Part shown: positions 8,203 to 34,093 of the stretch, piece after piece
Numbering within the stretch: position 1 is the stretch's first letter
Layout: each line of letters opens with the position of its first letter
From: Patescibacteria group bacterium
Lineage (GTDB): Bacteria > Patescibacteriota > Minisyncoccia > Phycocordibacterales > JBBTRF01
DNA: 64,000 nt
Reading direction: 5' to 3'
Assembly: GCA_038065315.1 (NCBI GenBank)
Contig: JBBTRF010000002.1
Span: 12,021-76,020, forward strand
Notes under the pieces: generated by a model
The model's database searches: none
Told to the model about the DNA's origin: nothing
What the model saw: the letters and a program-made list of their open reading frames with translations, nothing else
Translations under genes and position numbers: made by a program

Positions 8203-9681
8203 ATGAATATAAAGATATCGGTTGTTTTGGCACTCATCGTGTCAGCAGTTTTTCCTGTAGTCGCACAAGCAAAAATTGAATTTACCGAAGTGATGTATGA
8301 CCCAGCTGGGACGGATACTGGCAGGGAATGGATCGAGATTCACAATACCGGCAGTGCGCCGGTTGATGTGTCCGCGATGAAATTGTCCGAAGAAGGCGTA
8401 CAACATGTCTTGAAAGCGAGTGCGCTTGGCAGTGTGAGTACAGGTCTGCTCGATGCGGGGCAGTATGGGGTGATTGCGGATGATCCAGCGAAATTTTTGG
8501 TGGATTGGTCAACCTACTCCGGCCCGCTTTTTGACAGCAGTTTTTCGCTCAAAAATACCGGTGAGCCCATTGTGTTGCGCAGCAAGGATTTCGATGAAGA
8601 CAGTCTCGTGTTTGATCCGACAATCGGCGCAGCTGGTGACGGCAATTCGCTGCAGAGACAGATCTCTGCAGAAGGGGTAATGACGTGGGTCGTTGCTGTA
8701 CCGACGCCAGGTGGGGGTCTCAGTGTCGCTGATGTGAGTAGCACAAATGGTACAAGCGGCACAAGCAGCACGACTGATTCTCCACCGCCATCCGCCACTC
8801 CTGCTGCGGAAACCTCGAGTCCCGTTCAAGTATCGGCTGAAATGGCGACGCCTGTCGTCACGAAGAGTATTCCCGTGGAGCCACAAATCTTCTGCAAGAT
8901 CAGCGGAAAAAGCGAGGTGTTTGCTGGTGTCGAGACCGCTTTTTCCGCTCAGGGTCTCGGTTTGAAGAAACAGCCGTTGCAAAATGCTCGATACGTTTGG
9001 AATTTTGGCGATGGACAGACGAAAGAGGGACAGTACGTGTTGCACACGTATACGCAACCGGGGACGTACGATGTGTTTTTGGCTGCTGCGTCGGATGTGT
9101 ACTCCGCGAGTGATCGTTTGAAGGTGACGGTTCGCTCGCCCCAGCTCAGTGTCGCGCATTCGCAGGAGGTGTTGACGATCCTGAATCAAGACACTTCTTC
9201 GATTGATCTGTTTGGCCTGAAGATACACCAGGACGGCAGGAATGATTTCCTGTTTCCGGAGCATTCCACTTTGTCTGGTCGTGCGGAAATGAACATTGAC
9301 ACGAGTTTGTTTTCCATGGCGCATGCGGATGTGTCGCGAGCGAAAGAGCTGCCGATCACGTTGCAATATCTGAACGGTCGGGTGGTGGCGACTTCATCTG
9401 AACGAGAGATTTCGCCGACGGCCTCGGAGACGGTTGCAAAGGTCGTTCCGCCTAAAGAGACAAAAACGGTGACAAAGTCGACAAGGGCGGTGGCAAAGGT
9501 GGTAGCAAAACCGAAGGTGGCAGACAACGCTTCACAGACAATCGACCTCACGGCGAGCAGTAGTGAGGGGCAGATTATCGCGCTCGATACTACTGCGAAG
9601 GAGCGAAGGCTAAATTACTACGGTGCCACTATTGGCGTGCTAATACTGCTCGCTTTTGCCTGGTGGTACCTTTTGCGGTAA
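8203..9681 (+). CDS. secreted lamin-tail-domain (LTD) plus PKD-domain surface protein, C-terminal TM anchor
   Basis: signal peptide; EFTEVMYDPAGTDTGREWIEIHN LTD signature; WNFGDGQ...HTYTQPGTYDV PKD motif; C-terminal hydrophobic helix. Confidence 0.6.
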   Translation: MNIKISVVLALIVSAVFPVVAQAKIEFTEVMYDPAGTDTGREWIEIHNTGSAPVDVSAMKLSEEGVQHVLKASALGSVSTGLLDAGQYGVIADDPAKFLVDWSTYSGPLFDSSFSLKNTGEPIVLRSKDFDEDSLVFDPTIGAAGDGNSLQRQISAEGVMTWVVAVPTPGGGLSVADVSSTNGTSGTSSTTDSPPPSATPAAETSSPVQVSAEMATPVVTKSIPVEPQIFCKISGKSEVFAGVETAFSAQGLGLKKQPLQNARYVWNFGDGQTKEGQYVLHTYTQPGTYDVFLAAASDVYSASDRLKVTVRSPQLSVAHSQEVLTILNQDTSSIDLFGLKIHQDGRNDFLFPEHSTLSGRAEMNIDTSLFSMAHADVSRAKELPITLQYLNGRVVATSSEREISPTASETVAKVVPPKETKTVTKSTRAVAKVVAKPKVADNASQTIDLTASSSEGQIIALDTTAKERRLNYYGATIGVLILLAFAWWYLLR

Positions 9682-9695
9682 AATGGGCATAATCT

Positions 9696-10922
9696 ATGAA
9701 GCGAATCCTCATTTTTTCCCTTGTCTACTATCCGCGCTTCATTGGAGGGGCTGAGATTGCGATCAAGGAAATCACCGACCGAATTTTGCCTTCGGACATT
9801 GAATTCGATATGGTGACATTGCGGCTTGACAGGCGCCTCCCGAAATACGAGAAAATTGGCAATGTGAACGTGCACCGAGTTGGTTTTGCGGGAGATTGTG
9901 TCGACTCAGCGGATTCATTGAAGTTTCCGTTGAAATTGAACAAGTACTTGTTGCCATTTATTGGAGCGTGGAAGGCGCGACAATTGCATCGAGAGAAAGC
10001 ATACGATGCGACGTGGGCGATGATGGCCAACTATGCCGGCTTTGCAGGACTCTTCTTCAAGTGGTTGCGGCCGGAGGTGCCTTTTTTGCTCACCTTGCAA
10101 GAAGGCGATCCAATTCCGTATATTAAAAAGCGAGTGGGGTTGCTGTACCCAATCTTCCGACAGATCTTTGTGCGAGCCGATCAGGTGCAGGCGATTTCGC
10201 AATACCTTGCTGACTTTGCAACAGAGATGGGACACACGGGAAAAGTGGCAGTGGTGCCGAATGGTGTGGATGTGGAGCACTTTGCACATCGCGTGCCAGA
10301 CATTGAACTGACCGCGTTGAAGGACGCGCTGGGAAAGAAATATACCGATGAATTTTTGGTGACGACGTCACGACTGGTGGTGAAGAATGCGGTCGGGGAT
10401 ATTATTCGCGCGCTCGCGCTGTTGCCAGAACAGGTGAAATTACTCATTCTCGGTGTTGGCTATTTGGAAAATCAATTGCGTCAGCTCGCGCGCGAGCTCA
10501 AAGTCGCCGACCGCGTGCAATTTCTCGGCCACGTGTCGCACGTAGACATGCCAAAGTATCTTCACATCTCCGATGTCTTCGTGCGACCAGCGCTTTCCGA
10601 AGGGTTTGGTAATTCCTTCATTGAGGCTATGGCGGCTGGTATTCCGGTGATTGCCACGCCAGTGGGCGGCATCGTTGATTTCCTCACCTCTCCTGAACAG
10701 ACGGCGAAGATGGAAGCCGAGCGTGGCAAGTATGCAGCGAAGCCCGCAACCGGACTTTTCTGTCAGGTGGAGGATCCAAAGAGTATCGCTGTACAGGTGA
10801 AACGATTGGACGATCGACAGCTCCGTGATGTCTTGGTGCACAATGCCAAGGCGATGGTGGCCGAGAAGTATGATTGGTCGCTGGTCGCTCGCAACATGAA
10901 AGATTGGTTGGGCAAGGTATAA
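9696..10922 (+). CDS. glycosyltransferase family 4 (GT-B, RfaB-like)
   Basis: 408 aa; EGFGNSFIEAMAAGIPVIATPVGG E-X7-E motif. Confidence 0.8.
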   Translation: MKRILIFSLVYYPRFIGGAEIAIKEITDRILPSDIEFDMVTLRLDRRLPKYEKIGNVNVHRVGFAGDCVDSADSLKFPLKLNKYLLPFIGAWKARQLHREKAYDATWAMMANYAGFAGLFFKWLRPEVPFLLTLQEGDPIPYIKKRVGLLYPIFRQIFVRADQVQAISQYLADFATEMGHTGKVAVVPNGVDVEHFAHRVPDIELTALKDALGKKYTDEFLVTTSRLVVKNAVGDIIRALALLPEQVKLLILGVGYLENQLRQLARELKVADRVQFLGHVSHVDMPKYLHISDVFVRPALSEGFGNSFIEAMAAGIPVIATPVGGIVDFLTSPEQTAKMEAERGKYAAKPATGLFCQVEDPKSIAVQVKRLDDRQLRDVLVHNAKAMVAEKYDWSLVARNMKDWLGKV

Positions 10923-10923
10923 T

Positions 10924-12222
10924 ATGTCCATGAAGCGTTCCCAGCTCCCCGCGGTAGTGATGGTCTCGACCGATCTCTCTATTCTCAAAGAAGGGAGCCC
11001 GGCGCATCGCCGCATGCGTGAGTACGGTAATTTGTTTGCCGAATTGCACATTGTGCTGTTTACCCGACGTTTTGGAAAACGTGCGTCGAGAATGGGCGGG
11101 TCGAATGTGTCACGTGGCGTTCTTGTGCCCGCGACGATTCAGATCGGTCAGAATGTCTTGGTGCACAGCACACAATCGTGGAGTCGCTGGTGTTTTGTGC
11201 GGGATGGCGTGCGCGTGGGTCGCGCGGTGCTCGCGCGCCTGCTCAAGCGCACGCCGTCGAATCAGATCGTCATCTCCACACAGGATCCATTCGAGACCGG
11301 CTTGGTGGGGAAGCGACTCGCGGATAAGTTTGCCTTGGCGTTGCAGGTGCAGGTGCATACCGATTTTATGTCTCCGTATTTTTGTTGGCCAACATTCTCT
11401 TTCGTCGGCTTGTTGAATCGAATGCGTCGTCGCATTGCGCGCGCCGTGCTGGCGCGCGCTTCTTCGGTGCGAGTGGTTTCGGAGCGCATTAGAAAATCGC
11501 TCATGGGTTCTCATGTTTGGCACCCAGATCACATTCAAGTCTTGCCGATCTACGTCGACCCATTTGCCTGGGCGCTTTCGCAAGATGTACACGCTCGAGT
11601 GGGTGGCGAAAGGGAGGCAGATTGGGTACAGTTGCCGCATTGGGAAACGACAGGTTTGATGGCCTGCCGGCTCACCAAAGAGAAGCAGGTGGACCTCGCT
11701 TTACGGGCCTTTGCCAAGGCGGTCCGGGTGGCACCGAAAACAGGTCTTATTATCGCCGGGGAAGGCCCAGAAAGGCCCCACCTTGAGCGTTTGGCCCGTA
11801 AACTAGGAATTGAGCACCAGGTGCTTTTTGTAGGCTGGCAGAGGCGTTTATTGCCCTTCTTCCATTCGGCCGATTTTCTGCTTTCCACTTCGCTTTTCGA
11901 GGGGTATGGGATGACGATGGTGGAGGCGATGCTCGCCGGTATGCCGGTGATTTCCAGCGACACAGGTATTGCCGGCAGTCTGCTGATTGATGGTCGAAAT
12001 GGGTACGTGTTTCCATTGGGCGCAGGGAATGCGAAAGAAGCCGAAAATCAGCTCTTCACCAAAATGACCAAGCTCATCATGCATCCGGAATTGCGCGAAC
12101 AGTTTGGCGAGGCTGCTGCGCGCGATGCGCGCAAGCATGCCTACCCGAGCCACGGGGCGTATCTGAAGGCGTACCAAGAAGGCGTGCTGTCCGCGTTGAG
12201 TTCACGGGTTTCACGCGGCTAA
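10924..12222 (+). CDS. glycosyltransferase family 4
   Basis: 432 aa; EGYGMTMVEAMLAGMPVISSDTGI motif; start 1 nt after preceding stop. Confidence 0.75.
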   Translation: MSMKRSQLPAVVMVSTDLSILKEGSPAHRRMREYGNLFAELHIVLFTRRFGKRASRMGGSNVSRGVLVPATIQIGQNVLVHSTQSWSRWCFVRDGVRVGRAVLARLLKRTPSNQIVISTQDPFETGLVGKRLADKFALALQVQVHTDFMSPYFCWPTFSFVGLLNRMRRRIARAVLARASSVRVVSERIRKSLMGSHVWHPDHIQVLPIYVDPFAWALSQDVHARVGGEREADWVQLPHWETTGLMACRLTKEKQVDLALRAFAKAVRVAPKTGLIIAGEGPERPHLERLARKLGIEHQVLFVGWQRRLLPFFHSADFLLSTSLFEGYGMTMVEAMLAGMPVISSDTGIAGSLLIDGRNGYVFPLGAGNAKEAENQLFTKMTKLIMHPELREQFGEAAARDARKHAYPSHGAYLKAYQEGVLSALSSRVSRG

Positions 12223-12232
12223 TTTTTCTATC

Positions 12233-12658
12233 ATGCCTCCAACTCAACTTCCACTTCTTGAACGCTGTATGTTGGTTGTACGATATGGCATCGCCGGGGG
12301 CACTGCCGCGGCCATTGATGTCGGTTTTCTGTATGCACTGACGCATTACGCCGGTTGGTATTATCTATATGCCGCAGCATTCGCCTACACATGCTCTTTT
12401 TTTGCTCGGTTCTTCCTCCAAAAACATTTTGCATTCCGCGCCGCCGACACGAAGACAGTCGCTTTCGAATTTGGTAGCTACGCCGTTCTTTCCGGCTGGA
12501 GTGTGGTGGCGAGTTTCGGTCTCCTGAAGCTCTTTGTTGACGGCTTCGGTTGGTGGCCGGTATACTCGCAGGTCGCAGTGACGCTCCTCATTGCGGTGGT
12601 GAGCTTTTTTGTGTATCGTTTCGTTATCTTCAAGGCCAAGGGGGCGCCAAACGAATGA
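12233..12658 (+). CDS. GtrA-family small membrane protein (glycan flippase/translocase accessory)
   Basis: 141 aa, 4 TM, GtrA-like N-terminal pattern VRYGIAGGTAAAIDVGFLY; stop overlaps next ATG (ATGA). Confidence 0.6.
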   Translation: MPPTQLPLLERCMLVVRYGIAGGTAAAIDVGFLYALTHYAGWYYLYAAAFAYTCSFFARFFLQKHFAFRAADTKTVAFEFGSYAVLSGWSVVASFGLLKLFVDGFGWWPVYSQVAVTLLIAVVSFFVYRFVIFKAKGAPNE

Positions 12659-13701
12659 AACTCCTCATCATCACCCAAAAAGTCGATCAGAATGACCCGG
12701 TGCTTGGATTCATGCATGGTTGGCTACATGCCTTCGCCGAGCGATCGGAGAAGTTGACCGTGATCTGTCTCCAAAAAGGCGAGCATGCCTTACCGCCCAA
12801 TGTGCGAGTGCTGTCGCTTGGCAAAGAAAGTGGTGTGCCGCGCTGCGGGTATATTGCGAATTTTTTCCGCTATGCGTGGCAGTATCGTGCCGACCACGAT
12901 GCTGTGTTTGTTCATATGAATCAGGAATATTTGCTTCTCGGCGGCTGGCTCTGGAAATTGCTCGGCAAGAAATGCTTTATGTGGCGCAATCATCATTCGG
13001 GTGATTGGCGAACCCATCTGGCGGCGATGTTCTGTGGCGCAGTGTTTTGCACTTCGAAATATTCGTACACTGCGCGTTTCAAGAAGACCAAGCTGATGCC
13101 GGTGGGGATTGATACGGAAATTTTTAGGCCGACCTCATCGATTTCGTCCGGTGCGTCCTCGATGGTCAATCGAAACGTTCTTTTTCTTGCGCGCATGGCT
13201 CCGGTGAAGAAGCCGCACGTGCTCATTGAGGCTGTTTCGATGTTGGCAAAAAGAGGCGTGGCCGTGAAACTTGATTTGTATGGTGACCCGTTGCCGGCCG
13301 ATGTAGGATATTATGAAGGCTTGAAAGATATGGTGAAGCGCGAAGGGTTGGATGAGCAGGTGAAGTTTTTTGCAGGTATTCCAAATATGCAGACGGTCGC
13401 GGTGTATCAGTCGCATGACGTGTGCGTGAATTTGAGTTCGAGCGGGATGTACGACAAGACGATTTTTGAGGCGATGGCTTGTGGCAGCTTGGTGTTGGTA
13501 TCAAATCGCAACCTGGAAGGTGTGATTGATTCACGTTGTATATTCAAAGAAGGTGATGTTGCGGACTTGGCGGCAAAGCTATCTGCGTTGCTCAGTCTCA
13601 GTATTTCCGAACGGTCGAATATCATTGCGCGATTGAGGACTGTCGCGGAAGAAAACAATCTGAAGACCTTGGTGGGAAGGCTAATTACCGCGATGTCATG
13701 A
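12655..13701 (+). CDS. glycosyltransferase family 4
   Basis: MKLLIITQKVD N-terminus at 12655 (ORF opens at 12550); C-terminal FEAMACGSLVLVS GT-B motif. Confidence 0.7.
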   Translation: MKLLIITQKVDQNDPVLGFMHGWLHAFAERSEKLTVICLQKGEHALPPNVRVLSLGKESGVPRCGYIANFFRYAWQYRADHDAVFVHMNQEYLLLGGWLWKLLGKKCFMWRNHHSGDWRTHLAAMFCGAVFCTSKYSYTARFKKTKLMPVGIDTEIFRPTSSISSGASSMVNRNVLFLARMAPVKKPHVLIEAVSMLAKRGVAVKLDLYGDPLPADVGYYEGLKDMVKREGLDEQVKFFAGIPNMQTVAVYQSHDVCVNLSSSGMYDKTIFEAMACGSLVLVSNRNLEGVIDSRCIFKEGDVADLAAKLSALLSLSISERSNIIARLRTVAEENNLKTLVGRLITAMS

Positions 13702-14354
13702 TTGCCCCTTCTCACATTTCTCTGTTTTGGTATTTATTGAAGTCTGTGTCGAAAGGACAGAGCGTGTTGCGTGCGTTGATGAACCGGTCTCTGTCTGATG
13801 AGATAATCCGCAGGAAAGTGGTAGACGTTGGTGGTGGGCGACATCCGGATTATTTTTCTTTTTTGAAAAAAGAAGGAGATGTTTCAATTGAGGCGCTCGA
13901 TGCTTCGATCAGCAAGATTGATTTTGAAAAAGATGTGTTGCCGTACCCTACGGCTTCTGTGGATACGGTGATCTGTTGCAACGTTTTGGAGCACATCTAC
14001 CACTACATTTTTTTGACAGGAGAAATGCATCGGGTGTTGAAGCCGGGGGGCTCGTTGATAGGCTTCGTGCCTTTTTTGATAAACTATCATCCCGATCCGC
14101 ATGATTATTTTCGATACACCAAGGAATCGCTCGTGCGTATTTTTGGGGAGGCCGGTTTTTCCAAGGTGGCCGTGCGGGAGGTGGGTGCTGGACCGATCTT
14201 GCTGAATTTCAACAATATTGTGTTGTCGTTGCCGATTTTCTTGCGACCGCTTTTGCTGCCGTTCTATTATTGGGCCGATGTCATAGTCCTGGCGCTGCGG
14301 CCGGGTTTGCGTACACGCTATCCGATGGGGTATATTTTCGTTGCACATGCGTAA
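13698..14354 (+). CDS. class I SAM-dependent methyltransferase (Methyltransf_11-like)
   Basis: VVDVGGG motif I, ICCNVLEHI, VLKPGGSLIG post-II; ATGA overlap with upstream GT. Confidence 0.7.
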   Translation: MIAPSHISLFWYLLKSVSKGQSVLRALMNRSLSDEIIRRKVVDVGGGRHPDYFSFLKKEGDVSIEALDASISKIDFEKDVLPYPTASVDTVICCNVLEHIYHYIFLTGEMHRVLKPGGSLIGFVPFLINYHPDPHDYFRYTKESLVRIFGEAGFSKVAVREVGAGPILLNFNNIVLSLPIFLRPLLLPFYYWADVIVLALRPGLRTRYPMGYIFVAHA

Positions 14355-15558
14355 TCTTTTTCTCATTTTTCATGGGAGGTTTCCGAGCGAGAAGGCCGCG
14401 GCTTTGTTTGCCGCGAAGAGCGCCGAGGCGTTTGCTGGCCAGGGACTCGAGACCACCATCGTGGCGCCTCGACGCCTCGGCCGCTCGAAGCAGTCGGCCT
14501 CGGCCTTTTACGGCGTTCGTGCCACCTTCGGGGTCGAGTATCTACCCGTCATCGATCTATTTTGGTTGCCATTCGTAAACCGCTTTTCGACCACACGAAA
14601 AATAGCCTTCTTTGTCAGCTTCGCCAGCTTCAGCCTCTCGTGCACCTACTTTTTTGCCATCCGACTTGCCAAAAGAGCGACGCGTTCCGAGACCATACTC
14701 TTCTCAAATGAATGGCTGCCACTTTTGGCACTGTCCTTCCTCTCAAAAAACACATTCTACGAGATGCATGATTTTCCAGAGAGTGGCCATGCTTTCTTTG
14801 TCCGCTTTCTGTGCCGGATGCGCTGGGTATTGATCCATAATCGCTGGAAGTCCGAAAAAGCACAGAGCCTTTTCGGAATCGACTCGGAGAAAATCCTATG
14901 TCGGGCAAATGCCGTCGACATCACACAATTTGCGATACCGCTTTCGAAGGTCGAGGCTCGCAAGCAGCTGACTCAGGCACATCCATGGATCGCCGCTCTC
15001 GCACCAGATACAAAGCTGGTGATGTACACAGGACATCTCTATGGCTGGAAGGGAGTCGACACTCTCGCTGCTGCGAGCGCTCTGCTATCTCCTAATACAA
15101 AGACGATCTTTGTCGGCGGAACACCGGCTGATGTTGCATCTTTCAAACTTCGACACGCCGAAGTAATCTCGAACGGCAAGGTGGTGGTGATCGGTCACCG
15201 ACCTCACACCGAGATCCCTGTGTGGCAGAAGGCTGCCGATGTCCTGGTGCTCCCAAATACCGCGAAGGAAGATATCTCTAAATACTACACCTCGCCAATG
15301 AAGCTGTTTGAGTACATGGCGAGCAATCGGCCGATTGTTGCTTCGGATATTCCGTCTATCCGCGAGATTGCCGACGATCACTCAGTCCTTTTTGTACCCG
15401 CCGACGACGCAGAGGCACTCGCGAAAGGCATTTCCAGGATGATCGACGAACCAGCGCTTTCCAATAGTCTCGCAAGGGCCGCATTTGAGCAGGTGAAGGC
15501 AAATACATGGCAGGCCCGCGCCGCGGAGATTTGCGCTTTTGTCCATCGGCAGAAATAG
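14341..15558 (+). CDS. glycosyltransferase (GT4-like, GT-B fold)
   Basis: 405 aa; C-terminal KLFEYMASNRPIVASDIPSIREI donor-binding motif. Confidence 0.55.
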   Translation: MHMRNLFLIFHGRFPSEKAAALFAAKSAEAFAGQGLETTIVAPRRLGRSKQSASAFYGVRATFGVEYLPVIDLFWLPFVNRFSTTRKIAFFVSFASFSLSCTYFFAIRLAKRATRSETILFSNEWLPLLALSFLSKNTFYEMHDFPESGHAFFVRFLCRMRWVLIHNRWKSEKAQSLFGIDSEKILCRANAVDITQFAIPLSKVEARKQLTQAHPWIAALAPDTKLVMYTGHLYGWKGVDTLAAASALLSPNTKTIFVGGTPADVASFKLRHAEVISNGKVVVIGHRPHTEIPVWQKAADVLVLPNTAKEDISKYYTSPMKLFEYMASNRPIVASDIPSIREIADDHSVLFVPADDAEALAKGISRMIDEPALSNSLARAAFEQVKANTWQARAAEICAFVHRQK

Positions 15559-15582
15559 CGGAATAGCACAGGATACATTCAC

Positions 15583-23216: not shown

Positions 23217-23242
23217 CCCGCGTGACGCACACGAACACTAAA

Positions 23243-24205: not shown

Positions 24206-24208
24206 CTT

Positions 24209-25282: not shown

Positions 25283-25343
25283 ATTGACGGAAAAGCTTCG
25301 AAAATAACGTCAAAAAGCCTTATAATTGGCCGCAAAATAGACA

Positions 25344-25372
25344 TTGACAGTAGCATTAAAATATGCTACAAT
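25344..25372 (+). promoter_or_regulatory. consensus sigma70 promoter (TTGACA-17-TACAAT) for EEP gene
   Basis: TTGACA 25344-25349, 17-nt spacer, TACAAT 25367-25372; AGGAGG RBS at 25474-25479, GTG start 25485. Confidence 0.55.
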
Positions 25373-25484
25373 TGAGACCGGTCAGGAAATGCCCTGTTTG
25401 GCATGTTCCGAATTTGAAAAAACAGCAGAAAACGCAATAAACCAGGCCCTAAACAGGCCGCAAACCTCTTGAAAGGAGGCCGCA

Positions 25485-26354: not shown

Positions 26355-28361
26355 CTACTTCCGCCACAGATACAGAGCAATCGGGAAGCAGTAACTATTT
26401 TTGAATGTTTCGGCGACTTGGAAATTAAAATCGCGATCAGCGCCGCGGCCCATGAAAGATGGCCAGACCCGGTTTTTGAGCTTTCTGAATTGGACCTTTT
26501 CTATCACTTCGCGCTTGAACATTGGACTGTTGCCCGCGCCTGGGTAGGGCGCCAGGTTGCCAAAGAAGAGCTTGTTCAGTACGCGGAGACGTTTGTAGTG
26601 AAAATGAATCGCGCTATTTACATACGTCGAGACTTTTGCAACCAACCCTTTTGCTTTCTGTGACAACGTGTAAATCTCTTTAGGTCCAAGGATTTTTCCG
26701 TCAATTTTGTATTCCGCTTTCGTCCCCAGGAGCTCTTCTCTGAACGGGACACACTCAGTAGTGATGTGCATCGCGCCATGCTTGGTGAGCAGATCGTGTT
26801 GAACCTCCAGTCGGTTCAATAGGGAGGCATCATCGCCGTCCTGGAAGGTGATGAGTTCGCCACGAGCCTTGGTGAAGCCAAAGTTTCGCGCAGCATAGCC
26901 TGCGTTGGTGTTGCGTTTCAGTATCGGATCGATGCGCTCGGTGTCGTTGCCGGGTAGTGAGTAATAAGCGACTCGCGGATCTTCTTTCGCGACGTCCTCG
27001 ACAATCTTTTTGGTGTTGTCGGCGCTGTTGTCGTCCACAACGATGACTTCAAGATGTGTGTATGTTTGTTGGAGGATTGAATCAATCGCTGTTTTGATCG
27101 TCTCGGCGTTGTTGTGTGCAGGGATGATGACAGAGATGAGCGGATTTGTTGCGGGGCGTAGTATGTCGTCGATAAAATGTCCGTAAGCGGAAGAAAAATG
27201 CTCTTTCGTATGGTGTTCCCGAGCATACATCCAGGTGTTGTGAGCCAATGTGCTGAGCTGCTCCGGTGCAGTCTGTGCGATTTTTTTCGCCTGTGCGCGG
27301 ATCGATTCAATGGTCGGCTCCTCCAAAATGATTGCCGGGGCTTTCTCAGCAAGACCTGTTTGTCTGGTGACAATCGGGAAGACTCCAGCATGCATTGCCT
27401 GTATCACGGCACCGGAAGTACCCTCAGAGGCTGAAGGGTAAATGAGGGTTGCGCATTTATTAGCGATGGCAATGAATGTCGTGTCGCCGACGGTCATTGT
27501 GCCAGCCTTGTCCATCTTTGGTCGTGGATAGCAAGTGATATTCGGTAAGGCGAGTTCGGTTGCATAGACTGCTTGGAACGTTGTTTCAGCGGCGGTGGGG
27601 CCGATGATATGTAAATGCAGTTCCGGCATGGTGGAGAAAGCTTCTATTACCAAATCGAGTCCCTTTAGGATAGCCCCACCGCCGCTGAAGAAGAGAAAGT
27701 GCTTTCGCGCTTCGGCAAAATCTTTTCCGCCCGCCTCGCCAATCTCGGAAGCTTCAAATGTCTGTGCGACGGATATAGGAATGTGGCGAATCGGTTTATT
27801 GAATCGAGCAAATGTTGCGTAAACAGTGTCGTTGCCGAAGCCTTCAAGGAAGTCTGCATAAGCAGGATTTTCAGCACCGGTCTCGACGCGCCGAGCTGGC
27901 AGAATGATACCGCGTCGCTGTTTGAGTTCGGCGAGACGCTTCGCTTCAGCGGCGTTTTGAAAACCGCTCTCCGACGAAGTGATGTGCATTACTTTTTTGC
28001 ATGAAGCAGGAAGGAGGGAGGTGCCTGCGAGGCCGGCAGTACACCATCGCTCCAGATTTTGCCGCACATCGACGACGGCATCATATTGTTTGCGCGGAAC
28101 AAAAGACGTATTTGAGGCATTGATCACGTCGACATCATATCCTCGAACTGAAAACAGCCGAGCAATTTCAGAGCATTCCCAATAGTTGGTGTGTGGGTCG
28201 GTGAATCGCTGCCAAGGGAGAAGGGTGAAGGGGCCGGTGAGATATGAGAGGAGAACTCGACCTTTTTTTGTCGACTGGCCACCTGTCTTTTCGCGTGTCG
28301 CCGGCACATGCACTACTCCATGTAGCTTGTTTGAGACTTTGTTTTTGAGAGTGCCGATCAT
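26355..28361 (-). CDS. bifunctional glycosyltransferase (N-terminal GT-B/GT4-like domain + C-terminal GT2 domain)
   Basis: N-half GTSGAVIQAMHAGVFPIVT; C-half LISVIIPAHNNAETI...VIVVDDNSADNT...FQDGDD; start MIGTLK at 28361 (ORF opens 28556 with R/S-rich junk). Confidence 0.65.
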   Translation of the reverse strand: MIGTLKNKVSNKLHGVVHVPATREKTGGQSTKKGRVLLSYLTGPFTLLPWQRFTDPHTNYWECSEIARLFSVRGYDVDVINASNTSFVPRKQYDAVVDVRQNLERWCTAGLAGTSLLPASCKKVMHITSSESGFQNAAEAKRLAELKQRRGIILPARRVETGAENPAYADFLEGFGNDTVYATFARFNKPIRHIPISVAQTFEASEIGEAGGKDFAEARKHFLFFSGGGAILKGLDLVIEAFSTMPELHLHIIGPTAAETTFQAVYATELALPNITCYPRPKMDKAGTMTVGDTTFIAIANKCATLIYPSASEGTSGAVIQAMHAGVFPIVTRQTGLAEKAPAIILEEPTIESIRAQAKKIAQTAPEQLSTLAHNTWMYAREHHTKEHFSSAYGHFIDDILRPATNPLISVIIPAHNNAETIKTAIDSILQQTYTHLEVIVVDDNSADNTKKIVEDVAKEDPRVAYYSLPGNDTERIDPILKRNTNAGYAARNFGFTKARGELITFQDGDDASLLNRLEVQHDLLTKHGAMHITTECVPFREELLGTKAEYKIDGKILGPKEIYTLSQKAKGLVAKVSTYVNSAIHFHYKRLRVLNKLFFGNLAPYPGAGNSPMFKREVIEKVQFRKLKNRVWPSFMGRGADRDFNFQVAETFKNSYCFPIALYLWRK

Positions 28362-28365
28362 GCGA

Positions 28366-29133
28366 TTACTTCGCCGCCTTCTTGATGAACAGCGCGAGGT
28401 CGAGCGTATCCGCCTGCTCAGTTTTTGTGATCGTGAATGGTCCTTCGAATGGTCCGTTGACGCAATTCCACTCCACTTCGCCGTGCTTTCGGGTGATCGC
28501 ATCCAATTCAGCAAATGTCCACTCGCGCAAATGCCAATAATTCTTCGGCGTGCCATCGGCCTTGGTGTACTCTGGTCGCTTGTTCGGTGTAGTCAAGAAG
28601 ACGCCGCGCTTCGAGACACGCAACACTTCGTCGAGGAAGCGATGGTAGTCCTCCACGTGCTCCAACACTTCCACACAGGTGATCATGTCAAAATAATTGT
28701 CAGGATAGTCGAGTTTATAGCCATCGTACAAAGAGAGTTTTTTCAACTTTGGATGCTTGCCGGCAAGTACGCGTTGGCAATAGTCGTAGGCTTTCTTATC
28801 GACATCGGCGCCATACACCTCAGTCGCTTTGTTCCCCAAAAGCACCAGTCCATAGCCGGTGCCAAATCCGACATCGAGCACACGGTCGCCCTCCTTCACA
28901 TAATTATTGAGGGCACGAAAATACACCTCGATCTGGCACGGTGGAATGATTCCTTCGATTCCCGAGACAGCCGAGTATTCCTTCGGATCGGTCTTTTTCG
29001 ACGTGTTAAAAACCAGGCCAACCGAACTCGCCGTTTTCACCGGCATGATCCGGAATCCGAGCGTGCTGTCTAGACAATTATTGACTGCTTTTAGGGTTTT
29101 TTTGATCATATAAATAGGAGCCAATTTTATCAC
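28366..29133 (-). CDS. class I SAM-dependent methyltransferase
   Basis: VLDVGFGTGYG motif I, ITCVEVLEHV, SKRGVFLTTPN. Confidence 0.7.
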   Translation of the reverse strand: MIKLAPIYMIKKTLKAVNNCLDSTLGFRIMPVKTASSVGLVFNTSKKTDPKEYSAVSGIEGIIPPCQIEVYFRALNNYVKEGDRVLDVGFGTGYGLVLLGNKATEVYGADVDKKAYDYCQRVLAGKHPKLKKLSLYDGYKLDYPDNYFDMITCVEVLEHVEDYHRFLDEVLRVSKRGVFLTTPNKRPEYTKADGTPKNYWHLREWTFAELDAITRKHGEVEWNCVNGPFEGPFTITKTEQADTLDLALFIKKAAK

Positions 29134-30140
29134 GCCTTTTTTCGGGTCACAAGGCGGTAGAGTTTTTTCAGTAATTCGCTCTTCACCGCGATCGCGATGA
29201 CTGTTTTCTTCAGGCTAAATGGCTCTGGACGAAAACTCCGTTCGTAAAAGGCTCGGTCGTATTCCATCCCGGCCGCTACCGCGCCTTCGGCAGTTGCCGG
29301 ATGAACGATAGCTCCATCCGCGTAGAGATCATGTGTCGCTAGGTGCTGGTTGCTGCCGCCCGAATGCGTCCCTTCTGAGCCGATATTGGATACCAGATTT
29401 TTGCGAGGGATGATACAAAAGCCGCCACTCCTCAGACAGGCATACAGCCACTGCACGTCCCAGGTGTTTGTCTTTCCGGATACGATGTCGTCAAAGAGAC
29501 GTTCCATATGATTTCTCATATATTTCTGATCTTCCGGATATAGCTCGTTCAGCATCTTTATGTCTCCCGAGTCGCTCTTGTTTCTTGTTGCTCTTTCCCA
29601 ATCCTTCATCTGCACATCATACTGCTGCCATGCTCGGCGCCATGTCGCCCAGCCCCAGATCGGAAAGTATTTTGAAAATGCGTAGTCGGTCTCGATGTGC
29701 ACATCTGGCAGAAAATTGTCGCCAGAGATCATCATCACTCGCTCATCCGATCGATACCGCTTGAGCATCTCTCCTGCGAAACGAAAGAAAGACGGGTGGG
29801 GTAGACAGTCGTCTTCGAGGATAATCCCTTCTTCGACGTGTTCAAAAAACCAATTCAATCCCGAGGAGATACGCTCTTTCAGGCCAAGGTTTTTTTCGGC
29901 GTAATTGCGACGGACTTCGCATGGCCAGTCAATCTCCGTATCTGCAACGATCGCTCTTGTTTCTTCGCAGAGGGCTGACTCGGCCGGGGTGCGTGGACCA
30001 TCTGCAATAATGAAGAGCTGTCGAGGCTTTGCCTGGCGGATTTGCTCGAATACCTTGCGAGTGTATTCCGGGCGATTGAAGATGAGAAAGGCAATCGGCA
30101 AGGTCGATAGGTTTGGCGTGTTGATATTAGTCTGCGACAT
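29130..30140 (-). CDS. GT-A-fold nucleotide-diphospho-sugar transferase-like protein (HlpA-like)
   Basis: FIIADGP...ILEDDCL...WGWATW pattern; start MSQTNI at 30140 avoids 83-nt overlap with asnB. Confidence 0.35.
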   Translation of the reverse strand: MSQTNINTPNLSTLPIAFLIFNRPEYTRKVFEQIRQAKPRQLFIIADGPRTPAESALCEETRAIVADTEIDWPCEVRRNYAEKNLGLKERISSGLNWFFEHVEEGIILEDDCLPHPSFFRFAGEMLKRYRSDERVMMISGDNFLPDVHIETDYAFSKYFPIWGWATWRRAWQQYDVQMKDWERATRNKSDSGDIKMLNELYPEDQKYMRNHMERLFDDIVSGKTNTWDVQWLYACLRSGGFCIIPRKNLVSNIGSEGTHSGGSNQHLATHDLYADGAIVHPATAEGAVAAGMEYDRAFYERSFRPEPFSLKKTVIAIAVKSELLKKLYRLVTRKKA

Positions 30141-31953
30141 GGTATTTTTTGTGAGACTGTAGCCAGATTTCCAGGCAGTACAGTACCCAGATCTTGTAAT
30201 GATATTCATCTTTACCCTCGACGTAGAATCGGTGAAGCAATGCCTCGACCGCTTCTTTGTTCATCATTGAAAAGATCTCCGCCTTTGGGTCGGATAGCGT
30301 CTTCTCCACTTCGGTTTTAAATGCGCCTTCTCTTAGCCATTTCTTCACCGGTGCACCAAAGCCTTGCTTGCGACGATGAACGAATTCCTGCGGCATCACC
30401 TCGCCGAGCAGGTCCTTGAGGATGCGTTTGTATGTCGATCCATCGGTTTTGTATTCATCGGGTAGGTTGTACACGAATTCCGCCAGCTTGTGGTCGAGGA
30501 AGGGCGAGCGCACTTCGAGTGAGTTCATCATGCCGGCTCGGTCGGCTTTCACCAAAAGGAGGCCAGGGAGGTAGGTGGTGAGGTCGAAGAGGTTGATCTT
30601 TCGGGCGGATGAGAGGGTCGAATGCGCGACTTGTGTATTGATGATACCGCCACCTTCATTGCTGCTGCCAGGTTGTTTCTTCCACAGTCGTCTTTTTTCA
30701 GATGAACTGAATACGCTGATTGCTCGTATGTATCCAGCAAATGGGCTCAGAAATACTTTCTCAATAAAATTCTTTCGGTACGACAGATGCTTGTGTCGAG
30801 TGTACCAACCATAGCCCAGGAAGAGTTCGTCTGCGCCGTCACCAGAAAGTGCCACCTTCACTTTCTCAGCGGTAGAGCGGGAGAGAAGAAACTGAGGGAA
30901 GTCCGATGAGTCGGCGTGTGGTTCGTCAAAATATGCGAGGGCACTACGGAGCTCGCCAACAGCGTCATCTTTGGCTTGTAGGGGGTAATGTTCGGTACCG
31001 ATCTTCTGAGAAGCCTCGAGGGCGAAGGGGAGTTCGTTGATATAGTTTTGGTACCCGATTGAAAAAGTCTTGATTGGGGTCTTGGAAAAAGATTGTGCGA
31101 GGTGGGTGACCAGCGTGGAGTCTACGCCGCCAGAGAGGAAGGAACCGATCTCTACGTCGGCGATCATGCGCTTGCGCACTGCATCGGTGAGTAGTCTTCG
31201 GACGCCCTCCTTTGCCTCAGCGTATGTCAGTGTTTTTGTGTCGGTTCCGTTCGGTACGGTTTTTTCAAGTTTCCAGTACTGAGAAATCACCAAACGATCT
31301 TCAGTGTTTGTATTCTGAAAATCCAAAGTTGCACAAGACGCCGGTGGTAAGGTGTAAATATTTTTGTAGGTAGTTTTCCATGGCGGGATGTACATCAAGG
31401 TGAGATAGTCGTCGATGGCGGCTGGATTGAGTACGCCCTTTATTTTCCCCGATGCGAAGATTGCCTTGATTTCTGAGGCGAATATCAACGCACCGTTTTG
31501 GTCGTACGCATAATATAATGGCTTTTTCCCAAATCGATCTCGTGCCAAAAAAAGCTGCTGCTTTTCATCATCCCAAATAGCGAAAGCAAACATGCCGTCG
31601 AGATGTTTCGGACACTCAGCCCCGTATTCTTGGTAGGCTTTCAAAATCACCTCGGTGTCTGAATTGGTCGAGAAAGTATGACCTTTTTTTTGAAGCACAC
31701 TGCGCAGCTCGCGATAATTATAGATCTCGCCGTTGAAAGTTACGGTGAGGTTATTTGCGTTGTCCCGCATCGGCTGATGTCCGCCAGAAAGATCGATGAT
31801 CGAGAGTCGTGTTTGCGCTAGGACACATCGGTTGTATCGCGCGATCCCCTTGTCGTCTGGACCTCTCTTGGCTAGTGTGTCGAGCATCGAGCCGAGCATT
31901 CGGTCGTCGTATGTCTCAATGTTTGCGCCGGTAATGCCCAGGATTCCGCACAT
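30127..31953 (-). CDS. asnB: asparagine synthetase (glutamine-hydrolysing), WbpS-type amidotransferase
   Basis: MCGILGI N-terminal nucleophile Cys2, SGGVDST PP-loop. Confidence 0.85.
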   Translation of the reverse strand: MCGILGITGANIETYDDRMLGSMLDTLAKRGPDDKGIARYNRCVLAQTRLSIIDLSGGHQPMRDNANNLTVTFNGEIYNYRELRSVLQKKGHTFSTNSDTEVILKAYQEYGAECPKHLDGMFAFAIWDDEKQQLFLARDRFGKKPLYYAYDQNGALIFASEIKAIFASGKIKGVLNPAAIDDYLTLMYIPPWKTTYKNIYTLPPASCATLDFQNTNTEDRLVISQYWKLEKTVPNGTDTKTLTYAEAKEGVRRLLTDAVRKRMIADVEIGSFLSGGVDSTLVTHLAQSFSKTPIKTFSIGYQNYINELPFALEASQKIGTEHYPLQAKDDAVGELRSALAYFDEPHADSSDFPQFLLSRSTAEKVKVALSGDGADELFLGYGWYTRHKHLSYRKNFIEKVFLSPFAGYIRAISVFSSSEKRRLWKKQPGSSNEGGGIINTQVAHSTLSSARKINLFDLTTYLPGLLLVKADRAGMMNSLEVRSPFLDHKLAEFVYNLPDEYKTDGSTYKRILKDLLGEVMPQEFVHRRKQGFGAPVKKWLREGAFKTEVEKTLSDPKAEIFSMMNKEAVEALLHRFYVEGKDEYHYKIWVLYCLEIWLQSHKKYHVAD

Positions 31954-31977
31954 AATAATAGTTGATTAAATAAAAAA

Positions 31978-33240
31978 TTACGGGTGCTGGGTGAATCTAA
32001 AGTCGAACAGCACCTTGCTTGGTACTGGCGGCAGCCGCTTGGTGCGATAGAAGCCGGCATTGTCGACGTTGATGACCGCAGCGTCGACAACAACATCGAG
32101 GATCTCGGAGTTCAGGCTATCGGTGGCCATGAAGAGGTCAAGTAGGTACTCACCAGTTTCCAAGTTGAAATGTTTGATCTCTACTTCGATCATGCCTTTT
32201 CCGGGTTTGAGTTCGATCTTCTGATCGAGGACAGAGTTGGTGATATTCGACAGGTCTTCGCCTTTCGCATTTTTGATGCCGATGGATACTTTTGCATTCA
32301 CGTACGGCGTAATCGTTTTATTCACATAGCCGATGGCGAGTCGCAGTAAATGCTTCTCTTGGTCCATCTCGATGACTTCGCACGAGTTGAAGCGTACAAA
32401 GCCGCTGCCCTTGCGATCTGTGCGTGCGCCGAGGTCAGAGTCGCTCATTTCTTTTCGAGTGTGTAGGTAGAAATCAATGACCTCTTTTGTGTTGCCGACC
32501 ATCTTTACTCGGCCGCCATCAATCAGCACACATTTGGTACAGAGCTTTTCGACGGCCGCCATGTTGTGGCTCACGAAGAGGATGGTTCGGCCGGTTTCCT
32601 TCACCACTTCTTCCATTTTGCCAAGACACTTCTTTTGGAATTCCGCATCACCAACAGCCAACACTTCATCCACAAGCAGAATGTCGGGCTCCATGTGTGC
32701 TGCGACGGAGAACGCCAGGCGTACGTACATGCCGCTCGAGTAATATCGCACTGGCGTGTCGAGGAATTTTTCTACGCCGGAGAAGGCGACGATGGCATCG
32801 AACTTCTGCGAGATTTCTTTCCGAGTCATGCCCAAGATCGCTCCGTTTAGATAGATATTTTCTCGGCCGGTGAGTTCAGGGTGAAAGCCTGTGCCCACTT
32901 CGAGGAGGGAAGCCACTCGTCCGCGCATGATGATCTCGCCTTCAGTCGGCGGGGTGATACCGGTGAGGATTTTCAAGAGAGTGGATTTGCCGGCGCCGTT
33001 CGAACCGATGATACCGATAATCTCACCTTTGTTGATTGATAAATCCACCTCCCGGAGCGCCCAAAAGGCTTCCTTGGTATCTATTCCCATTGCCGTTTTT
33101 GCTTTGTGTGCGGCAAAGCGGAAAGGATTTTTAAAAATATTTGCCAGAACGTCGCGCAGTGCAATGTAACCGCCCGCGCTGTGGCTGATGGTGTACTTCT
33201 TGCCGATTCCCTTGATTTCGATGATTGGTTGCATGGTCAT
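31978..33240 (-). CDS. wzt: O-antigen/teichoic-acid export ABC transporter ATP-binding protein with C-terminal glycan-binding extension (Wzt/TagH-like)
   Basis: GSNGAGKSTLLK Walker A, LSGG-like signature YSSGMYVRLAFS, Walker B ILLVDE; about 170-aa C-terminal beta-rich extra domain. Confidence 0.8.
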   Translation of the reverse strand: MTMQPIIEIKGIGKKYTISHSAGGYIALRDVLANIFKNPFRFAAHKAKTAMGIDTKEAFWALREVDLSINKGEIIGIIGSNGAGKSTLLKILTGITPPTEGEIIMRGRVASLLEVGTGFHPELTGRENIYLNGAILGMTRKEISQKFDAIVAFSGVEKFLDTPVRYYSSGMYVRLAFSVAAHMEPDILLVDEVLAVGDAEFQKKCLGKMEEVVKETGRTILFVSHNMAAVEKLCTKCVLIDGGRVKMVGNTKEVIDFYLHTRKEMSDSDLGARTDRKGSGFVRFNSCEVIEMDQEKHLLRLAIGYVNKTITPYVNAKVSIGIKNAKGEDLSNITNSVLDQKIELKPGKGMIEVEIKHFNLETGEYLLDLFMATDSLNSEILDVVVDAAVINVDNAGFYRTKRLPPVPSKVLFDFRFTQHP

Positions 33241-33256
33241 GTGTTTTGGATGGCGA

Positions 33257-34093
33257 CTAGATCACGTCGGCAAAGTAGCGCTCGACCTTTTTGAAATATA
33301 CGGTACCGATCACGAGGAGCACGAGGCAGGCAGCGAAAGAGATTGACACCAACTCCCAATTGATGGGCGCTGTGCCCAACAAAGTTGCGCGTGCTGTTTG
33401 GATGACACCCATCATCGGGTTGAGTGCGAGTAGCCAGGAGTATTTTCCAGCAATACTCGCTGGATAGATAACCGGTGTCACAAAGAGGAGGGTTTGAATG
33501 AAAAAGGGCAACACGAAACGCACATCGCGATACTTCACGTTGATCGCCGCGAGGAAGAGCCCGCCGCCGACCGCGGCCATAAAGGTGATGATGAGTAAGA
33601 GTGGAATCACGGCAATACTTGCAAGCTCCGGCACGTATCCGTAGTAGATCATCATGCCGGCGAGAATAAAAGCGGCAATGGCGAAGTCGACGAATTTGGT
33701 GGTCACTGAAGAGAGCGGCAGAATCAAGCGTGGAAAATACACTTTGGTGATGATGGCCTGGTTTGAAATGAGTACGTTGCTTGTGTCGCTCAGTGCGCCA
33801 GAGAAGAATTGCCAGAAGAGTAGGCCAACATACACGAAGATTGGGTAAGGGACGTTGTCAGAAGGGATTTGAGCCAGTGTGCCGAAGAAGACGCTAAACA
33901 CCACCATCGTAATGAACGGCTGGAAGATCGCCCAGAGTGCACCGATTGCTGTCTGCTTGTAGCGCACCTTCAGGTCGCGCCACGTGAAGAAAGCAAGGAG
34001 CTCGCGATAATTCCAAACCTCACGAAAATCATAAAGGCTAAATGTCTTTTTTGGCCGAATGATATTTTCGATGGTCTCTGTTGAGGTGGGCAT
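33257..34093 (-). CDS. wzm: ABC-2 type polysaccharide export permease (Wzm/TagG-like)
   Basis: 278 aa, 6 TM, N-terminal WNYRELLAFFTWRDLKVRYKQTAIGALW ABC-2 signature. Confidence 0.8.
   Translation of the reverse strand: MPTSTETIENIIRPKKTFSLYDFREVWNYRELLAFFTWRDLKVRYKQTAIGALWAIFQPFITMVVFSVFFGTLAQIPSDNVPYPIFVYVGLLFWQFFSGALSDTSNVLISNQAIITKVYFPRLILPLSSVTTKFVDFAIAAFILAGMMIYYGYVPELASIAVIPLLLIITFMAAVGGGLFLAAINVKYRDVRFVLPFFIQTLLFVTPVIYPASIAGKYSWLLALNPMMGVIQTARATLLGTAPINWELVSISFAACLVLLVIGTVYFKKVERYFADVI

Follow-up and report, generated by a model that had tools for sequence, protein, structure and literature searches.

How does a member of the Candidate Phyla Radiation (CPR; also called Patescibacteria) assemble and export a surface glycan, and where do the sugars for it come from? 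The question is raised by a gene cluster in a 64,000-nucleotide stretch of a Patescibacteria metagenome-assembled genome (MAG; GCA_038065315.1, contig JBBTRF010000002.1), referred to below as the window. A large proportion of the bacteria in groundwater are CPR members, which depend on other cells or live attached to them. Host recognition and phage defence are likely mediated by their surface glycans, none of which has, to our knowledge, been characterised so far. An initial annotation, made from the sequence alone, described the cluster as an ABC-transporter-dependent, methyltransferase-rich glycan assembly locus without nucleotide-sugar genes, and proposed that the cell relies on scavenged precursors. 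The first part of this description holds. The window contains a well delimited surface-glycan biosynthesis locus of about 27 kb (about 9.7–36.8 kb), which is of a largely conventional ABC-dependent type in a CPR bacterium. We consider it likely that this locus of a groundwater Parcubacteria/Paceibacteria bacterium combines an ABC-transporter-dependent, cap-regulated glycan route with a conserved, heptose-linked module for precursor synthesis or modification.

The window, with a G+C content of ~52%, encodes proteins identical to those on contigs of the NCBI assembly GCA_964355935.1. Identical genes are also present on ENA and Logan assemblies from the 0.1-µm fraction of Hainich groundwater well H52. 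The closest loci in genomes, identified by a scan described below, are those of Parcubacteria (Kaiser-, Yonath-, Vogel- and Nomurabacteria).

Gene content and organization of the locus

Domains were assigned by Pfam and NCBIfam profile searches, with scores in bits compared to the gathering score (GA) or the model cutoff. The domain matches have E-values of ~1e-9 to 1e-90, far beyond chance. Two open reading frames (ORFs) without a Pfam match (21261–22079 and 29130–30140) gave no match in PDB sequence searches and were resolved by predicting their structures from homologue alignments. With these two included, the locus holds Wzm and Wzt, 12 glycosyltransferase (GT) domains and 4 methyltransferase (MT) domains (Table 1). 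Strands are given as + and −, and L-numbers denote related loci or contigs compared with the window. Nearly every GT and MT assignment of the initial annotation was confirmed by the domain searches. It had counted at least six GT domains, and the GT4, GT2 and GT-C families were found at the coordinates and on the strands that it gave. Pfam also confirmed the GT4-GT2 and GT2-MT fusions, GtrA, AsnB and Wzm/Wzt, and four MT domains were found where four to five had been claimed. The GT11 label is weak. The protein encoded at 18665–19588 passes the gathering score (24.8 versus 23.9 bits), but an hhalign comparison with a strong GT11 from L007 yielded a probability of 28% and aligned a C-terminal motif only.

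The genes are arranged, as previously described, in two convergent operons and a further minus-strand block. The plus-strand operon (9696–18668) encodes two GT4 enzymes, GtrA, GT4, MT, GT4, GT-C (PMT_2) and the GT2-MT fusion, with 4-nt overlaps between most adjacent genes, the last two (15583–17004 and 17001–18668) included. The opposing operon (22079–18665) encodes a no-Pfam ORF, GT2, a DUF268-type MT and the weak GT11-like protein. The stop codons of the two operons overlap by 4 bp at 18665–18668, leaving no intergenic room for a terminator. The second minus-strand block (34093–26355) encodes Wzm, Wzt, AsnB, the other no-Pfam ORF, an MT and the GT4-GT2 fusion. The earlier inventory was incomplete in passing over the plus-strand block at 22185–26270, which encodes a Zn-dependent alcohol dehydrogenase (ADH), the alpha and beta chains of a thiamine diphosphate (ThDP)-dependent E1 enzyme, and a protein of the endonuclease/exonuclease/phosphatase (EEP) family.

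The boundaries also required revision. The cluster had been started at 8203, where a surface protein with LTD and PKD domains, an N-terminal signal sequence and a C-terminal transmembrane anchor is encoded (8203–9681), an adjacency that recurs in L003. This protein is a left-flank neighbour and no glycan enzyme; the GT genes begin at 9696. At the other end, 450 bp past the former limit of 34093, begins a gene encoding a Wzy_C protein with TPR repeats. Neither a tRNA nor an Rfam family at gathering score was found within the window, and thus neither RNA genes nor an integration site point to a mobile island.

Based on its predicted fold, the protein encoded at 29130–30140 is a GT13-like glycosyltransferase of the GT-A type, and its homologues are often fused to an MT resembling that of the neighbouring gene (28366–29133). 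The GT4-GT2 fusion results from the in-frame loss of an ATGA stop/start overlap relative to L005; four relatives have two overlapping genes instead, with the ATGA retained. The gene for AsnB, probably a glycan amidation enzyme that would act on a carboxylate, adjoins Wzt in L004, L005, L009 and L016 as well.

The GT2-MT fusion is nearest to the AglJ/dolichyl-phosphate-hexose synthase type (AglJ is its best NCBIfam model, at 77.9 bits and below the cutoff), has two C-terminal transmembrane helices and is 88% identical in L005. It shares one plus-strand operon with GtrA and GT-C, and by gene content the three form a putative three-component set for glycosylation outside the membrane from a polyprenyl-phosphate sugar. 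GtrA/GtrB/GtrC, ArnC/ArnT and streptococcal GacI/GacL are three-component systems of this kind, the last adding side chains. They too combine in one operon a GT2 that carries C-terminal transmembrane helices with GtrA and GT-C, whereas the GT2 of the present locus has an inserted S-adenosylmethionine (SAM)-dependent MT domain. Glycan loci of other Paceibacteria (L025, L026, L027, L007 and L015) contain up to six MTs per 17 kb, many of them FkbM- or RfbT-like. Heavy O-methylation thus looks like a lineage-wide trait of Paceibacteria, not peculiar to the window.

Proposed export and final transfer of the glycan

Wzm and Wzt are encoded in adjacent genes, and their best PDB matches are ABC-transporter and TarH/TagH chains, presumably including entries for WzmWzt of Aquifex aeolicus. 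Wzt carries a C-terminal carbohydrate-binding domain (CBD; Wzt_C, PF14524, 35.8 bits compared to a gathering score of 30.4). The best PDB match of Wzt is to the 404-residue ABC-transporter chains 8dku and 7k2t, presumably the full-length Wzt of A. aeolicus. The alignment reaches chain residue 349, past which it is unreliable, and thereby extends beyond constructs of ~240 residues comprising the nucleotide-binding domain only. The presence of the CBD suggests cap-dependent export and would explain at least one of the MTs. The role of a terminal cap and of the Wzt CBD has been established in A. aeolicus and E. coli, and the A. aeolicus CBD binds 3-O-methyl-mannose or 3-O-methyl-rhamnose (PMC9445017).

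The locus shares several features with the cap-dependent Wzm/Wzt pathways of E. coli O8/O9a (with WbdD), A. aeolicus (WzmWzt-CBD), and the common polysaccharide antigen of P. aeruginosa and P. syringae. These are an ABC-2 permease with a CBD-bearing ATPase, many cytoplasmic GTs including a bifunctional GT4-GT2, methyltransferases within the locus, the lack of Wzx, and a Wzy_C/WaaL-like gene, here a candidate for the final transfer. In contrast to these systems, the present locus belongs to a CPR bacterium, which lacks an outer membrane and a lipid A-core, and it has neither a nearby WecA-type initiator nor a recognised WbdD-like kinase or coiled-coil terminator. In addition, it contains the GtrA/GT2/GT-C decoration module and a module of ADH, E1 and GT9-like proteins.

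The Wzy_C-TPR gene is syntenic in L005, L006, L007 and L027, where MurB follows as it does in the window, and its product is probably the final glycan transferase, as judged from its domains. The initial annotation had reported the lack of both Wzx and Wzy. No Polysacc_synt/Wzx protein was found in the window and no Wzy between 8203 and 34093, but the Wzy_C-TPR protein (34544–36802) lies just outside those limits. It had also named an MraY-family gene at 979 as the sole exception to a lack of initiating enzymes. No other PF00953 gene occurs in the window; however, this one encodes MraY itself, close to a Mur ligase, and it was rejected as initiator of the glycan (TIGR00445, 189 bits; WecA model, 39.7 bits).

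A conserved ADH/E1/GT9-like module

The gene at 21261–22079, divergent from the ADH gene, encodes a 272-residue protein with 457 homologues. Its predicted fold resembles that of a GT9 heptosyltransferase, in a compact GT-B form. Some family members are fused to a GmhB-like HAD phosphatase domain (P0089 and P0105). Many others are 400–440 residues long (P0002, P0028 and similar proteins; L007 7654–8868; L009 7579–8907), with an additional C-terminal domain of ~170 residues that has no Pfam match and differs from the HAD domain of P0089 and P0105. For the identical Logan contig L003, the public gene calls omit the gene and place on the opposite strand an ORF (21435–23216, +) for an over-extended ADH of 593 residues. 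Homologues set the ADH at ~344 residues with a start near 22185, and the 272-residue minus-strand gene is real.

The best PDB match of E1-alpha is the human pyruvate dehydrogenase (PDH) E1-alpha, and by sequence similarity the protein is closest to the pyruvate-specific PDH-type E1. It has 6725 homologues, of which the best 120 are at least 64% identical; among these 120, every source name given is a Patescibacteria lineage or an unclassified bacterium. The source annotations read pyruvate/acetoin dehydrogenase or generic ThDP-dependent E1 component. No E2 or E3 was found in the window, nor beside the ADH/E1 trio in any Pfam-annotated related locus.

A genome scan with E1-alpha identified 13 Patescibacteria loci at 60–90% identity, onto which the window proteins were mapped. 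E1-alpha and E1-beta are both present in all 13, and Zn-ADH, E1-alpha and E1-beta are contiguous on one strand in 10. In L006 the ADH is encoded on the other strand and an SDR gene intervenes, L008 has no ADH match, and in L016 the ADH gene is cut off by the end of the contig. The trio is also intact in three further long contigs with independent gene calls, and ADH is 60–93% identical in all relatives. L005 is fully syntenic with the window (70–93% amino acid identity), the trio and the GT9-like gene being the best conserved parts (90–93%), compared to 70–79% for the GTs and 57% for EEP. L004 retains the GT9-like gene, the ADH-E1 trio, EEP, GT4 and GT2, AsnB, Wzt, Wzm and the HTH gene, while other GT genes stand where the window has its left-hand GT/MT operon. 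The comparison with related genomes, suggested in the initial annotation as a check, thus reveals a conserved core, with the trio and the GT9-like gene, beside a GT/MT module that can be swapped, as is the case in serotype loci.

Scanning metagenomes with the GT9-like family as anchor yielded 79 loci. Of these, the 31 with an identity of 46% or more and with 4.5 kb or more on one side were used. Neighbours were labelled by BLAST from Pfam-annotated reference genes, which undercounts divergent ones (GmhA, for example, was never detected in the metagenome loci), and on this basis ADH occurs within 9 kb of the GT9-like gene in 26 of the 31 loci, E1-alpha in 24, E1-beta in 21, an HldE-kinase-like PfkB protein in 16 and EEP in 8. 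Four of the five loci without ADH are on contigs truncated on the relevant side. The GT9-like/ADH/E1 unit is, by gene neighbourhood, near-obligate across Paceibacteria.

In ten loci (L037, L038, L073, L075, L079, L085–L087, L090 and L092) the neighbour of GT9-like and ADH is only 27–31% identical to E1-alpha and E1-beta has no match; a different ThDP enzyme may take the place of the E1 pair in lineages that are more distant. An Alphaproteobacteria MAG (L017, 3291–7579) encodes a trio of Zn-ADH, E1-alpha (32% identity) and E1-beta without E2, preceded by a luciferase-like monooxygenase and followed by a sulfotransferase. E2-less ADH-E1 trios therefore exist outside CPR too, in apparently specialised metabolism.

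Probable link to heptose and possible chemistry

In many relatives, a PfkB kinase is encoded directly after E1-beta, at the position held by EEP in the window. Its best model is the heptose-7-phosphate kinase domain of HldE (rfaE_dom_I, 98–125 bits), followed by ribokinase at 45 bits. GmhA of L012 passes the TIGR00441 cutoff (210.9 versus 209.45 bits). The flanks of the relatives' modules also encode CTP_transf_like proteins of the HldE domain II type, epimerases closest to ADP-heptose 6-epimerase, canonical GT9 heptosyltransferases, GT4 enzymes, and many FkbM and other MTs. Some loci have Gmd/Fcl with a strong GT11; of 47 related loci, 10 contain Gmd-like genes. L027 exhibits a same-strand array of GT9, ADH, E1-alpha, E1-beta, PfkB and CTP_transf genes with overlaps of 4–8 nt or gaps below 40 nt, followed by GmhA, Wzy_C-TPR and MurB. 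Most likely, given these neighbourhoods, the GT9-like/ADH/E1 module supplies or modifies a heptose-type sugar.

With the ADP-heptose pathway and its GT9 enzymes, the relatives' loci share GmhA, HldE-kinase- and adenylyltransferase-like proteins, an HldD-like epimerase and GT9 proteins; the window shares the predicted GT9-like fold of the 21261–22079 protein, with the GmhB-like HAD fusions of its family. Unlike the classical pathway, the operon has inserted Zn-ADH and E1-alpha/beta genes, and the GT9-like protein is ~70 residues shorter than WaaC/WaaF. As the window lacks the kinase, GmhA, HldE and HldD, the heptose link in this genome rests on the GT9-like fold and on the relatives. ADP-heptose synthesis has been reported as specific to Paceibacteria among the CPR classes, dTDP-rhamnose pathways as occurring across the classes, and the pentose phosphate pathway as present in every one of them (PMC9166423). 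A role of E1 as a transketolase-like supplier of sedoheptulose-7-phosphate is less likely, because E1-alpha is nearest to the pyruvate-specific PDH E1 and all CPR classes are reported to have the pentose phosphate pathway.

PDH-type E1-alpha/beta pairs without E2/E3 that are encoded beside a reductase in a sugar or glycan cluster are also found in avilamycin (AviB1/AviB2) and paulomycin biosynthesis (Pau11/Pau12 with Pau7), and YerE in yersiniose synthesis is functionally comparable to sugar branching of the AviB1/AviB2 type. For AviB1/AviB2, and for Pau11/Pau12 with the ketoreductase Pau7, the attachment of a two-carbon branch from pyruvate to a keto-sugar has been proposed (PMC4753412). The likeness is one of gene content: the window has no 4,6-dehydratase, its reductase is a Zn-dependent ADH of the medium-chain dehydrogenase/reductase (MDR) type, and the associated sugars are of the heptose type and not 2,6-dideoxyhexoses. 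No literature was found that describes a heptose-linked ADH/E1 trio, that places E1-type enzymes in heptose or O-antigen loci, or that connects acetoin metabolism with CPR, and the conserved module of ADH, E2-less E1 and GT9-like proteins is apparently undescribed.

A bolder proposal, which we regard as possible but doubtful, is that the GT9-like protein, Zn-ADH, E2-less E1 and HldE-like kinase or EEP constitute a Paceibacteria-wide pathway. A ThDP-dependent carbon–carbon bond would be formed on a heptose-type precursor, by two-carbon branching or by chain extension with pyruvate, and the resulting higher-carbon or C-branched sugar would be nucleotide-activated and transferred onto the surface glycan by the minimal GT9-like enzyme.

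Proposed pathway and alternative explanations

From the observed gene content we infer every step of the following pathway. A lipid-linked polymer would be assembled on the cytoplasmic face of the membrane by five GT4, two GT2, one GT13-like, one GT11-like and one GT9-like enzymes, and O-methylated by up to four MTs, with amidation by AsnB possible. A cap at the non-reducing end, most likely a methyl group, would halt elongation and be read by the Wzt CBD, licensing export through Wzm/Wzt. The polyprenyl-phosphate-sugar synthase GT2(-MT), GtrA and GT-C would add side residues outside the membrane, and the Wzy_C-TPR protein would move the glycan to its final acceptor in the wall, a lipid or a protein. 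The central unit (GT9-like, Zn-ADH, E2-less E1-alpha/beta and EEP) would serve as the precursor or modification module tied to heptose-type glycosylation. Here E1 would most likely transfer a pyruvate-derived two-carbon unit to a sugar carbonyl and ADH would carry out the coupled redox step.

Several observations weigh against this pathway. None of the four MT domains can be assigned as the chain terminator, and neither a WbdD-like kinase nor a coiled-coil terminator was recognised in the locus. No initiating phosphoglycosyltransferase (WecA/TagO/WbaP) was found in the window, where the only PF00953 gene is that of MraY, and BLAST found no WecA-like or PF00953 homologue in 1.2 Mb of related loci; such an enzyme may have its gene in another part of the genome. 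The Wzy_C protein could act as a polymerase or a protein O-oligosaccharyltransferase instead of a ligase. GmhA, HldE, GmhB and HldD are absent from the window and its 10-kb extensions, EEP stands where relatives have the kinase, and the GT9-like protein lacks a Pfam GT9 match and is only 7–13% identical to GT9 structures. The chemistry of E1 and ADH is deduced from gene neighbourhood and protein family.

The initial annotation attributed the lack of sugar-nucleotide genes to an episymbiont that has no precursor chemistry in the cluster and scavenges from a host the nucleotide sugars that decorate its surface, which now appears very unlikely. It is correct that no canonical nucleoside diphosphate (NDP)-sugar synthase, dehydratase or nucleotidyltransferase was found in the 64-kb window and 10 kb beyond either end, and the Patescibacteria MAG derives from a 0.1-µm groundwater fraction, which makes a reduced lifestyle plausible. 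However, many characterised polysaccharide loci depend on NDP-sugar genes encoded elsewhere, and we know of no established route for bacterial uptake of intact nucleotide sugars. The ADH/E1/GT9-like module is linked in relatives to sugar-activation genes, with gmd/fcl-, gmhA-, hldE- and hldD-like genes in the equivalent locus, and the presence of MurB and MraY in the window indicates that UDP-GlcNAc is used. Together with the dTDP-rhamnose and ADP-heptose pathways reported in Paceibacteria (PMC9166423), these data leave the scavenging inference unsupported, and the locus very probably, as judged from its genes and those of its relatives, carries precursor or modification chemistry. Alternatively, the Zn-ADH/E1 block could belong to central or fermentative metabolism (acetoin/butanediol, pyruvate decarboxylation) and merely reside in a conserved neighbourhood unrelated to glycans. 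The family matches are to PDH/acetoin-type E1 and generic MDR alcohol dehydrogenases, some E1 homologues are named 'acetoin:DCPIP oxidoreductase', and the trio (60–93% identity) is more conserved than the surrounding GTs. Even so, this alternative is unlikely. No E2/E3 or lipoyl protein was seen near the trio in any locus, and the trio is tightly packed on the same strand with genes for HldE-like kinase, adenylyltransferase and GT9 (L027). The pairing with the GT9-like gene is near-obligate across loci whose content is otherwise reshuffled, distant GT9-like homologues retain a divergent E1-like neighbour, and the alphaproteobacterial trio is beside a sulfotransferase instead of E2/E3.

The nature of the product may also be questioned. 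CPR bacteria have no outer membrane, and the product could be envisaged as a polyol-phosphate polymer that resembles teichoic acid and leaves the cell through a TagGH-type transporter. The E1, ADH, kinase and cytidylyltransferase-like genes of relatives would then make a CDP-polyol by a logic resembling DXS/DXR/IspD. The best NCBIfam match of the ATPase is indeed a teichoic-acid export subunit (213 bits, below the cutoff), E1-alpha has weak DXP_synthase_N matches, and PF01467 also includes glycerol-3-phosphate cytidylyltransferase. Yet the domain searches of the window detected no CDP-glycerol/ribitol phosphotransferase (TagB/TagF), the twelve GT domains indicate a true polysaccharide, and GmhA (above its cutoff), the HldD-like epimerase and the GT9 genes point to heptose and not to a polyol. 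With the Wzt CBD being a feature of capped O-polysaccharide systems (PMC9445017), a teichoic-acid-like product is quite improbable. A somewhat better, though still small, chance is given to protein glycosylation, in which the Wzy_C-TPR protein would be a PglL/PilO-like O-oligosaccharyltransferase, or the GT9-like protein a TibC/AAH-like heptosyltransferase, or both, with a surface protein (a pilin, for example, or the LTD/PKD protein) as the target. The Wzy_C domain is common to O-oligosaccharyltransferases, and the surface-anchored LTD/PKD protein is encoded directly upstream, but the Wzt CBD with Wzm/Wzt favours long capped polymers and the analysis of the locus yields no acceptor protein.

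Under the preferred reading, a cap-regulated glycan route with a heptose-linked module, the locus provides a parts list for a CPR surface glycan: cap-dependent ABC export, heavy O-methylation, decoration outside the membrane and a ligase-like Wzy_C-TPR protein. A conserved core with a swappable GT/MT module is what one would expect of a structure with antigenic variation. Of most use is the ADH/E1/GT9-like module, which is present in many Paceibacteria loci and whose linkage with genes for ADP-heptose suggests sugar chemistry that has yet to be explored. The tempting but unsupported inference that Patescibacteria must scavenge nucleotide sugars is corrected as well.

Features of the locus and its flanks

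Table 1 Coordinates and profile or fold evidence for genes of the glycan locus and adjacent features.
Feature	Coordinates	Strand	Evidence
MraY	979–2148		TIGR00445 189 bits (cutoff 192); WecA model 39.7 bits
LTD + PKD surface protein	8203–9681	+	Pfam LTD 66 bits, PKD 47 bits
GT4 (a)	9696–10922	+	Glycos_transf_1 100.7 bits, Glyco_transf_4 47.8 bits
GT4 (b)	10924–12222	+	Glycos_transf_1 101.9 bits
GtrA-family small membrane protein, putative polyprenyl-phosphate-sugar flippase component	12233–12658	+	PF04138 66.8 bits
GT4 (c)	12655–13701	+	Glyco_trans_1_4 59.5 bits; start from L003 gene call
SAM-dependent MT (a)	13698–14354	+	Methyltransf_23/11, E 1e-8
GT4 (d)	14341–15558	+	Glyco_trans_1_4 76.3 bits
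GT-C (PMT_2/ArnT-like) membrane GT, predicted to act outside the membrane	15583–17004	+	PF13231 39.8 bits
GT2 (polyprenyl-phosphate hexose synthase type)-SAM-MT fusion	17001–18668	+	Glycos_transf_2 105 bits, Methyltransf_11 45.6 bits
GT11-like (fucosyltransferase superfamily), weak	18665–19588	−	PF01531 24.8 bits (GA 23.9)
DUF268/Methyltransf_11 methyltransferase	19581–20372	−	PF03269 44.4 bits
GT2 (b)	20362–21264	−	Glycos_transf_2 72.5 bits
Compact GT9-like GT-B protein, no Pfam match	21261–22079	−	Predicted fold; conserved Paceibacteria family
Zn-dependent medium-chain ADH, first gene of conserved trio	22185–23216	+	ADH_N and ADH_zinc_N
ThDP-dependent E1 alpha, PDH-type	23204–24205	+	E1_dh 232.6 bits; TIGR03182 316 bits (cutoff 394)
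E1 beta	24209–25282	+	Transket_pyr and Transketolase_C
EEP-family protein	25485–26270	+	PF03372 54.3 bits
GT4-GT2 fusion	26355–28361	−	Glycos_transf_2 93.6 bits, Glycos_transf_1 29.1 bits
SAM-dependent MT (c), paired with the GT13-like gene	28366–29133	−	Methyltransf_11 62.7 bits
GT13-like GT-A glycosyltransferase, no Pfam match	29130–30140	−	Predicted fold
AsnB-type glutamine amidotransferase	30127–31953	−	Asn_synthase 303.6 bits, GATase_7 173 bits
Wzt ABC ATPase with C-terminal carbohydrate-binding domain	31978–33240	−	ABC_tran (PF00005) ~82 bits; Wzt_C
Wzm ABC-2 permease	33257–34093	−	PF01061 56.7 bits
HTH_17 (MerR/excisionase-like) DNA-binding protein	34124–34444	−	PF12728 43.9 bits; conserved next to Wzm, syntenic in L004 and L005
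Wzy_C polytopic membrane protein with C-terminal TPR	34544–36802	+	Wzy_C 77.3 bits; TPR matches

Directly left of the glycan locus, the gene at 6220–8190 encodes a VirD4/TraG-like coupling-protein ATPase with a long Pro/Ala-rich tail. Its start coincides with a point of assembly breakage: contigs CAYHFM010000006.1 and CAYHFM010000003.1 and the ENA contig H52 R3_3597, all from the same population, break at ~6300–6360 of the window, which may reflect strain heterogeneity or a repeat at an island border. To the right, genes for a PemK/MazF-like toxin (44451–44849, −), a GNAT acetyltransferase (44966–45574, −) and a Fic-domain protein (55124–56215, +) are scattered amid the housekeeping genes for SecA, enolase, iPGM, Obg and GatB. 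Six plus-strand ORFs in a row at 57827–62904 have no Pfam match and are followed, just past the right end of the window, by a giant gene of more than 3500 codons (L021, 11559 to 21476); this may be an operon for large surface proteins of the kind typical of CPR. MraY is adjoined by two ORFs without a significant Pfam match (2170–4238, −, and 4519–5811, +), one of which has a weak ATP-grasp signal (18.6 bits, below the cutoff). A putative glycoside hydrolase of the DUF4015 family (317 bits) is also encoded near MraY, and these three proteins may be related to the cell wall.

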